Origin: a virus
DNA: 35,681 nucleotides
Direction: 5' to 3' (one strand)
UHGV virus genome: UHGV-1359969
Part shown: positions 27,637 through 28,994 of the stretch, one piece after another
How the letters are laid out: the number at the start of each line of letters is the position of its first letter
Numbering within the stretch: the first letter of the stretch is position 1
Translations under genes and position numbers: made by a program
Notes under the pieces: generated by a model
Told to the model about the DNA's origin: nothing
Seen by the model: only the letters and a program-made list of their open reading frames with translations
Database searches by the model: none

Positions 27637-27733
27637 GGCTCACCCCCTTCCGGAGGATTTAGTTAATAGGGTGCCGCGCACAGTATCTCTGCGCTGATTA
27701 CGTTTGTTTGTTCAGGATTCTGTGGCGGCGTAT

Positions 27734-27809
27734 TGGTGCCCCGAGGCCGGATTCGAACCGACAACCCATCGGTTATGAGCCGAGCGCTCTACCGTTGGGC
27801 TACTGGGGC
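27734..27809 (-). tRNA. phage-encoded tRNA, anticodon CAU (Met or Ile2 type)
   Basis: Reverse complement GCCCCAGTAGCCCAACGGTAGAGCGCTCGGCTCATAACCGATGGGTTGTCGGTTCGAATCCGGCCTCGGGGCACCA: T-loop TTCGAAT, D-loop GG, anticodon loop CUCAUAA, 3' CCA. The fold has one acceptor mismatch and one extra nt between T-stem and acceptor, so isotype and exact ends need tRNAscan-SE. Confidence 0.6.
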
Positions 27810-27970
27810 GTATATGAAAAAAGGCCGCACAGGGCGACCTTTGGAATCAGTTGTTCGGAATAACCGAACATGTGAACTATCCGGAAATTCCGGAGAGTTG
27901 CGGTTGATATTTATTAATCCTGATGCAGACTGATATATTTAACTATAAAAATAAAGTGGGACTTTAAAAA

Positions 27971-28483
27971 GTGGAAAACCTCATCAAAGCTTTAGATATG
28001 TCCATAAAAACAAAAAATTGGCACTCTGTTTTATTTATATCACTAGCACTTCCAGATATATGCGGAAAAATAGATGAGCCCAATAAGGGCTCAAAAGCAA
28101 GGACGATAAACTGGTTCAATAAATATCTTAAGCCCATTTATAGTATGGGTGAAGGTGAAGATATACACATTTTCCTGAGTGGAGCCGATTTTTACGCCCT
28201 GCGTTGTTCATGCTTACATGAAGGCAGTAGTGACATAACATCACAAAAAGCAAGAGAGACGCTGGATAGATTTTCTTTTATCGAACCAGCAGGCGACATG
28301 ATAATTCACAGGATTCAAGTAAATAACTCACTTCACCTTCAAGTAGACCAATTTGGGGAAGATGTTCTTGTCGCAGTAAAGAACTGGCTAAATGATATTT
28401 CTAATGACAAAGAAAAAATAAGCAAAATGGAGAACATGCTTCACATGAGGGTCTTAGACCCTTCGAAGGACTTCTTTATATAA
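27971..28483 (+). CDS. hypothetical protein, AT-rich moron in Q-lysis interval (possible HEPN-like Rx4H motif)
   Basis: 170 aa on the strand opposite to the late operon; strongly AT-rich; contains LRCSCLHEG (R-x4-H); start codon uncertain (GTG 27971 or ATG 27998). Confidence 0.5.
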   Translation: MENLIKALDMSIKTKNWHSVLFISLALPDICGKIDEPNKGSKARTINWFNKYLKPIYSMGEGEDIHIFLSGADFYALRCSCLHEGSSDITSQKARETLDRFSFIEPAGDMIIHRIQVNNSLHLQVDQFGEDVLVAVKNWLNDISNDKEKISKMENMLHMRVLDPSKDFFI

Positions 28484-28716
28484 CAAATTCATGTACACTC
28501 CACAAATAACATCAATCATGACCAGTTTAAAAAACTCACCTACCTCACTCCCCCACCACACCAGAGCCTGGGGGACTACGAGACCTATAAGGTTTCCGCT
28601 ATCAGCTTCATCAGTCGTAGTGTGCTCTGGCTTGGGCACCTACTTGGTAGGCATTGGTGCCGTATGACCTTTAAAATTAGTTGAACCTGTAAGTAACTCT
28701 TACAAGTTGCAGATAT

Positions 28717-28738
28717 GAAAAAGCCCTCCGGAGAGGGC
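28717..28738 (-). terminator. tR'-like intrinsic terminator downstream of the Q-like gene
   Basis: GCCCTC-cgga-GAGGGC perfect stem followed on the minus strand by TTTTTC, about 250 nt downstream of the Q-like stop. Confidence 0.5.
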
Positions 28739-28994
28739 TGTTATGCATGCTTCGACACAAGGCCGGTTTCCCGCCGGTGTGCGCCGTTTACTTACTTCCT
28801 CGCTCTGCATTCTTTCGACCTCTCAGCCGATACGGTTCGAGTCCCAGCCCTGCGGCGAAGTGACGAACTAGGCGGTATCGATAACAGGAGCCGCCTCTTT
28901 TATCCTGTAACCTTAACGAAATGGCAATAACCCATCGTTGGGATAATGATGGGCTACTATCGCCAAAATGTCAATTGATATTTCTATTTATTTA

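Follow-up and report, generated by a model that had tools for sequence, protein, structure and literature searches.

A hammerhead-type RNA fold and a cargo gene of a large unnamed family between the Q gene and the lysis genes of a Morganella-type prophage

We analyzed the interval between the Q antiterminator gene and the lysis genes of UHGV virus genome UHGV-1359969 (35,681 nucleotides (nt) in all, referred to here as the window), a Morganella-type prophage whose late operon lies on the minus strand and is transcribed from right to left. The interval contains a 137-nt structured RNA of the hammerhead type (type I) at 28530-28666(-), whose fold is established by covariation among aligned relatives, and, on the opposite strand, a 170-amino-acid (aa) open reading frame (ORF) at 27971-28483(+), hereafter ORF170, a single gene belonging to a large unnamed family. 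Judging from sequence, the RNA and the ORF170 family both look new, each being kin to known kinds, and we infer functions for them. Our overall reading is of a lambdoid leader-plus-cargo region with four separable elements, in which the RNA would cleave itself and ORF170 would be an HEPN-like RNase expressed in the lysogen; we give this reading about an even chance of being right. A first-pass annotation of the same DNA had placed here a Q-like gene, a tRNA, a terminator and an AT-rich ORF with an R-x4-H motif, all of which we found in place, and had taken the Q-to-holin interval for the lambdoid cargo site, which is right but ordinary; it had missed the structured RNA.

The RNA was delineated from a sub-threshold Rfam HH9 match, covariation and RNAalifold. 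A complete hammerhead core (C3 U4 G5 A6 N7 G8 A9, G12 A13 A14, A15.1-U16.1 and H17) lies at 28614-28582. Reading along the minus strand, the core segment CUGAUGA (28614-28608) is followed by helix II (28607-28597), G12 A13 A14 A15.1 (28596-28593), helix III (28593-28583) and C17 (28582), so placed that cleavage is predicted between 28582 and 28581. Helix I consists of an inner part (28621-28615 paired with 28581-28575) and an outer part (28630-28624 with 28567-28561). To these are added a 5' hairpin, P0 (28661-28656 with 28640-28635), and two pseudoknots, PK1 (28651-28646 with 28544-28539) and PK2 (28574-28569 with 28555-28550), all on the minus strand.

Run in E-value mode, Rfam yielded a partial Hammerhead_HH9 match at 28620-28575(-) (24.9 bits, E 0.0024), and an equivalent weak HH9 match with a compensatory change in helix I was obtained in a Gibbsiella-type locus. 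Relatives were gathered by pattern scans of IMG/VR and metagenomes, plus BLAST; a first exact-pattern scan of viral contigs had returned nothing because loop II varies. In an alignment of 10 sequences, P0, helices I-III and the two pseudoknots were 96.9% paired and 12 pairs were changed on both sides, which was matched in none of 500 shuffles, and slid controls contained 0-2 such pairs. RNAalifold, run unguided, recovered the three-way junction and the long-range helix. A covariance model scored divergent members at 36-90 bits, every helix being rebuilt from different sequence, and among 22 sequences, in an alignment fitted to the model, compensatory changes occurred in 17 of 27 nested pairs compared with 4-7 in slid controls. 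By helix, they covered 11 of the 14 pairs of helix I and one of helix III, and helix II had invariant G-C and C-G pairs; thus three helices surround the core, with covariation. The core itself was invariant in all aligned relatives, and position 17 was C or U, never G. Shuffles of the pseudoknot partners in single sequences were not significant alone, since G-rich tails pair here with C-rich loops; support for the pseudoknots comes from the aligned covariation. The single-sequence minimum-free-energy fold formed the outer helix and lacked the hammerhead junction. A second weak covariance-model match, inside the Q gene of locus L085, was dismissed (12.8 bits).

Two features weigh against a cleaving hammerhead. 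Position 10.1-11.1 held a purine-purine mismatch in all 22 sequences (either A•A or, as in the window, A•G) in place of a Watson-Crick pair, and none of 12 related loci reached an Rfam hammerhead gathering score, the best being 24.9 bits against 52 for HH9. The same features, together with very short helices II and III and with two extra pseudoknots and an invariant AAGUAGG loop that exceed the needs of a minimal hammerhead, would suit a non-cleaving leader element, such as a recognition site for a protein or RNase, a regulator of transcription or translation acting on lysis timing, or a decayed ribozyme. However, the catalytic core, H17 included, is wholly invariant while the surrounding helices covary, and a non-catalytic scaffold would have no reason to keep exactly this set of nucleotides. 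We therefore consider a non-cleaving element unlikely, and self-cleavage after C28582 is the most likely activity predicted for the RNA. Perreault et al. rejected hammerhead candidates with such a mispair, the sole exception described being U•U (PMC3088659), and this may explain the absence of the present class from Rfam.

The prophage hammerheads of Perreault et al. 2011 (PMC3088659; Rfam clan CL00010) have in common with our RNA the full core consensus, the three-way junction, pseudoknot tertiary contacts and a site between phage genes on a polycistronic transcript. Our RNA differs from them in its conserved A•A or A•G at 10.1-11.1, in forming two pseudoknots through the 5' hairpin loop and the 3' tail, in its fixed spot directly after a Q-dependent terminator and in scoring below the Rfam gathering thresholds. 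Simpler hammerheads with the same A-GC-N5-GC-A helix II were seen in metagenomic or viral contigs (L154, L174, L177, L182, L091 and L103), where they have a long helix III, lack the pseudoknot domain and stand directly upstream of ribosome-binding sites. Because these share helix II, the purine-purine 10.1-11.1 position extends beyond the lambdoid leader RNA.

The RNA sits in a late operon with the following layout. The gene proposed earlier as Q-like encodes a 273-aa protein at 28995-29816(-) that matches PF03589 (E 1.4e-51) and phrog_127 (E 2e-94), and NinG (30597-29998, minus strand) precedes it in the same operon. Directly after Q, a consensus scan identified a pR'-like sigma-70 promoter, TTGACA-17-CATCAT, at 28946-28974(-) (10 of 12 matches), which from its sequence and position fits a late promoter. 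The tR'-like terminator suggested at 28717-28738 was recovered on the minus, or late, strand at 28739-28717 as a GC-rich stem of 7 base pairs (hairpin 28739-28722) followed by the T-tract, UUUUU in the transcript. An HP1-type holin (27448-27636(-), PF16080, E 9e-29) opens the lysis cassette and is followed by a lysozyme (26975-27451(-), PF00959, E 2e-46), so that a PF03589 Q, a promoter-like site, a terminator and then holin plus lysozyme appear in the order of a lambdoid Q-dependent late leader. By this anatomy and established lambda biology, transcripts would end at 28717 without Q and would read through with it. The RNA begins about 50 nt after tR', and, being downstream of it, would be contained only in antiterminated transcripts. 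Self-cleavage after C28582 would then free the long late mRNA from its leader and give it a 5'-OH end, which could refold into the PK2 hairpin and so come to resemble the 5' end made by the engineered RiboJ; we infer an insulating or stabilizing role for it.

Relatives of the RNA lie 230-400 nt downstream of Q genes of three families, directly after the terminator, and are followed on their 3' side by an ORF170 gene on the other strand, by holin and lysozyme, or by tRNAs. Magnus, a virulent Klebsiella phage, has the RNA as well, there upstream of a tRNA cluster. Neither GenBank phages nor E. coli yielded a match to the RNA of the divergent group (L100 type), and a literature search turned up no hammerheads described from lambdoid late leaders. 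Theta (HDV-like) ribozymes located beside phage tRNAs (PMC10879173) offer a parallel, as they too form a small self-cleaving class on tRNA-bearing phage transcripts (self-cleavage of our RNA being predicted). They are of a different class, and our RNA and the tRNA downstream of it are about 720 nt apart and have a gene between them, so that direct tRNA end-processing is unlikely. Around the RNA, a hairpin, AGCCGGAGATCAGCACCGGC, was found on different sides, downstream in L087 and L109 and upstream in L114 (phage Magnus). In the divergent prophage L100, the stretch from Q to the hammerhead-type RNA contains a match to the Hfq-binding small RNA isrJ (3283-3359(+)) that, at 58.4 bits, exceeds the gathering score, and int-alpA RNA matches were obtained in L104 and L098.

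On the other strand, ORF170 occupies a trough in GC content (0.32-0.41 against about 0.50 in the flanks), as the first-pass annotation had noted for its AT-rich opposite-strand gene. Its GTG start (27971) is aligned with the ATG of its homologues and is preceded by a Shine-Dalgarno-like AAGTGGGA; by sequence comparison ORF170 is a real gene. It matched phrog_18591, a family of unknown function (E 4.6e-50), and a word-indexed search returned 49 clusters, with a 100% match from Morganella morganii. An exhaustive profile search collected 2,586 representatives at 50% identity (E <= 1e-3), so that the family comprises at least 2,586 such clusters, this number being a lower bound. A genome scan located 76 ORF170 loci in Proteobacteria, Bacteroidota, Actinobacteria, Cyanobacteria, Chloroflexi, CPR bacteria and one archaeon. 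The LRCSCLH string that had drawn attention to this gene corresponds to residues 77-83, with R78 at 28202-28204 and H83 at 28217-28219. Since chance alone would give about 0.2 R-x4-H motifs in a protein with 6 Arg and 6 His, the motif means little in one sequence and becomes meaningful through conservation. R78 and H83 proved invariant in the relatives: together with C79, W48, D73, Y75, A76 and L77 they are unchanged in alignments of 31 and 68 sequences, the latter spanning many phyla, and P28, D29, R44, G85 and H113 are nearly invariant in both. LRxxxxH was kept throughout the full-length relatives (67 of 67). The signature can accordingly be written D73-x-Y-A-L-R78-C79-x3-H83 (R78-H83 at 28202-28219).

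The idea that ORF170 is an HEPN-type RNase was thus upheld in one part, the invariance of R-x4-H, and fell short in the other, a match to described HEPN families. The profile searches proposed for it (the Pfam HEPN clan, DUF4145 and Abi families), with PADLOC models in addition, matched no member, and Pfam (with a cut-off of E up to 1-10), PADLOC and PDB-sequence searches returned nothing for ORF170 alone, for its profile or for 99 members (31 + 68) scanned singly. Foldseek against the PDB found no match for ORF170, BFVD yielded uncharacterized family members only, and the one informative fusion among longer family members was to TPR repeats. Weak fold evidence suggests that ORF170 may be HEPN-like. 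Several features fit an HEPN enzyme poorly: a Cys directly follows the Arg, the motif sits at the end of helix 71-82, and additional D, Y and H residues are conserved, all of which leaves room for another chemistry. Our leading hypothesis, short of established membership, is accordingly that ORF170 is a metal-independent RNase, HEPN-like and highly divergent, and the HEPN label for this large family is a reasonable, unproven guess.

A less probable alternative, which we nevertheless take seriously, is that ORF170 is another enzyme, such as a metal-dependent nuclease or hydrolase that acts through D29, C79, H83 and H113, or that it serves the phage in host takeover, counter-defence or superinfection exclusion. 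The failure of the HEPN profiles and of Foldseek speaks for it, as do the near-invariant additional D, Y and H residues with an H113-x-N115 block that adjoins a small beta-hairpin and a helix. Also in its favor are relatives in a few phage genomes (Bacillus phage SPbetaL5, Escherichia phage ECP1, Gordonia phage Bowser and Arthrobacter phage Nandita) and the lack of a defence-island signal, since no enrichment was found among the ORF170 neighbours and PADLOC models matched few of them. On the side of an HEPN-like RNase stands the conserved R-x4-6-H motif.

The closest functional precedent for an HEPN-like ORF170 is HepS, the HEPN anticodon nuclease of the Gifsy-1 prophage (PMC13043305), which shows that a solo prophage HEPN nuclease can stay silent without an antitoxin. 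ORF170 has no detectable sequence similarity and weak fold similarity to HepS, from which it differs by the Cys after the Arg and by its extra conserved residues. In contrast to the HEPN toxins of HEPN-MNT pairs (for example 7ae2, 5yep and 8xdj), it has neither an MNT nor another conserved neighbour and lacks a Pfam HEPN match, and it carries an additional beta-hairpin and C-terminal helices. The statement that no antitoxin-like partner is evident held across the 76 loci: clustering of 271 neighbouring ORFs revealed no conserved partner, the largest cluster having 2 members, and the 141 nearest neighbours carried 127 different Pfam families. ORF170 thus lacks the conserved adjacent antitoxin gene of a two-gene toxin-antitoxin system, HEPN-MNT or other.

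In prophages, ORF170 homologues recur in one slot and are always opposite to the late operon. A Citrobacter relative lies between a PF06323 Q and a holin, that of a Gibbsiella-type contig lies between a PF06530 Q and a holin, and those of IMG/VR contig L086 and of E. coli SZQ1 (labelled hypothetical by PGAP) occupy the same slot; an Acinetobacter relative is convergent with an endolysin. A possible promoter of its own, TTTATT-18-TATATT with a TGn extension, can be read at 27910-27939(+); the consensus promoter scan did not call this site, and its assignment to ORF170 is a weak one. It lies downstream of a perfect palindrome, TCCGGAAATTCCGGA (27880-27896(+)), which could be an operator or an RNA hairpin and which, with small changes, is kept together with a TTGATA box in L094, L095 and L097. 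Transcribed from an AT-rich promoter region of its own, ORF170 could be active in the lysogen at a time when the late operon is silent, and, as a solo enzyme with an invariant R-C-x3-H pocket, it would probably benefit the lysogen by abortive infection or exclusion as HepS does, a role suggested by the HepS analogy and by the position of the gene. On induction, convergent Q-driven late transcription would run through ORF170, yield full-length antisense RNA and shut the gene off, so that the antisense orientation would act as a simple off-switch.

We also considered whether the RNA and ORF170 form one module, in which the ribozyme-processed late antisense transcript would serve as an induction-triggered antitoxin for ORF170. 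In 8 of 11 close RNA relatives (those with downstream flank, leaving out the near-duplicate L085 and L087, whose locus starts at the RNA), an ORF170 homologue of 58-88% identity ends 35-60 nt past the 3' end of the RNA on the other strand, and this adjacency spans three Q families. However, the RNA occurs without ORF170 in L100, L109, L113 and Magnus, ORF170 occurs without the RNA in Citrobacter, Rouxiella, Acinetobacter and more than 70 chromosomal loci, and shared ancestry of the block accounts for the linkage equally well. A joint module is possible and unproven, and we rate it as improbable. We regard as a similarly long shot the broadest proposal: that the RNA represents a new and widespread structural class of hammerhead (purine-purine 10.1-11.1, double pseudoknot, location after a Q-dependent terminator) acting as a switch or insulator on antiterminated late transcripts and, where it is joined with ORF170, supplying the induction-triggered antisense RNA that would counteract a solo RNase toxin, one of an undescribed HEPN-like family with several thousand members.

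If cleavage and placement are as we propose, a hammerhead ribozyme would have a natural role in lambdoid late transcription, a well-understood circuit. What hammerheads do for bacteria and phages is still mostly unclear, and the lambdoid late leader offers a tractable setting. The family of ORF170, thousands of proteins that share an invariant Arg/His pocket, has been assigned neither in Pfam or PADLOC nor by structure, and its repeated arrival in the Q-to-holin slot, each time antisense to the late operon, suggests a general design in which lysogen-only genes are silenced on prophage induction. Annotation pipelines miss the RNA and label the ORF170 gene hypothetical, even in complete E. coli genomes.

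The pR'-tR' leader (28940-28712) had no Rfam match and an ordinary stability (z = -1.1). Within it, at 28829-28856 on the plus strand, a T-arm-like GGTTCGAGTCC is followed by an acceptor-like string; we rejected this stretch (~28831, +) as a tRNA, as neither ARAGORN nor Rfam calls one there. Just upstream of the tRNA, at 27812-27842(-), a hairpin of 9 pairs (27842-27820), of which 5 are GC, is followed by a U-tract, TTTCATATAC, and resembles a second terminator; it is kept in the related prophages L095 and L097. From its place between the tRNA and the antisense side of ORF170, it would keep stray transcription in the lysogen from reaching the holin.

The tRNA with anticodon CAU, the one tRNA reported earlier, was detected by both ARAGORN (as Met) and Rfam (49.8 bits) at 27738-27809(-), after the second terminator and ahead of the holin. 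The sequence reads C4:G69 and C5:G68; a CAU anticodon with these two pairs constitutes the TilS determinants of tRNA-Ile2, in which lysidine allows AUA to be read. PGAP labels a plasmid relative as tRNA-Ile, and phage relatives are annotated as tRNA-Met. ATA makes up 10 of the 17 Ile codons of ORF170, and other AT-rich cargo in the window is likewise rich in ATA. An AUA-reading, Ile2-type tRNA is plausible, and it may read a codon heavily used by the cargo. The model of the tRNA places one extra nucleotide on the 3' side of the acceptor stem and has a short D-loop; the L094 copy has the same feature. In phage 933W, the tRNA genes ileZ-argN-argO lie between Q and stx. The locus resembles such Stx phages in having one or more tRNAs, including one with a CAU anticodon, on the late strand of the Q-to-lysis slot; it differs in having a single tRNA, for which Met and Ile2 are both possible, and no toxin genes.

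AT-rich cargo was also observed elsewhere in the window. A 612-aa AT-rich ORF (541-2379(+), GC 0.35) with AT3 acyltransferase and SGNH domains adjoins the tailspike gene (2421-4424(-)) and, from its domains, is a typical O-antigen-modifying, or serotype-conversion, moron at the prophage end. Two further AT-rich ORFs on the opposite strand, 12441-12791(+) and 12840-13433(+), lie within the tail-gene region; the latter has a borderline C-terminal TIR_2 match (E 2e-6, 28.6 bits), and the pair may be a second defence-type moron.
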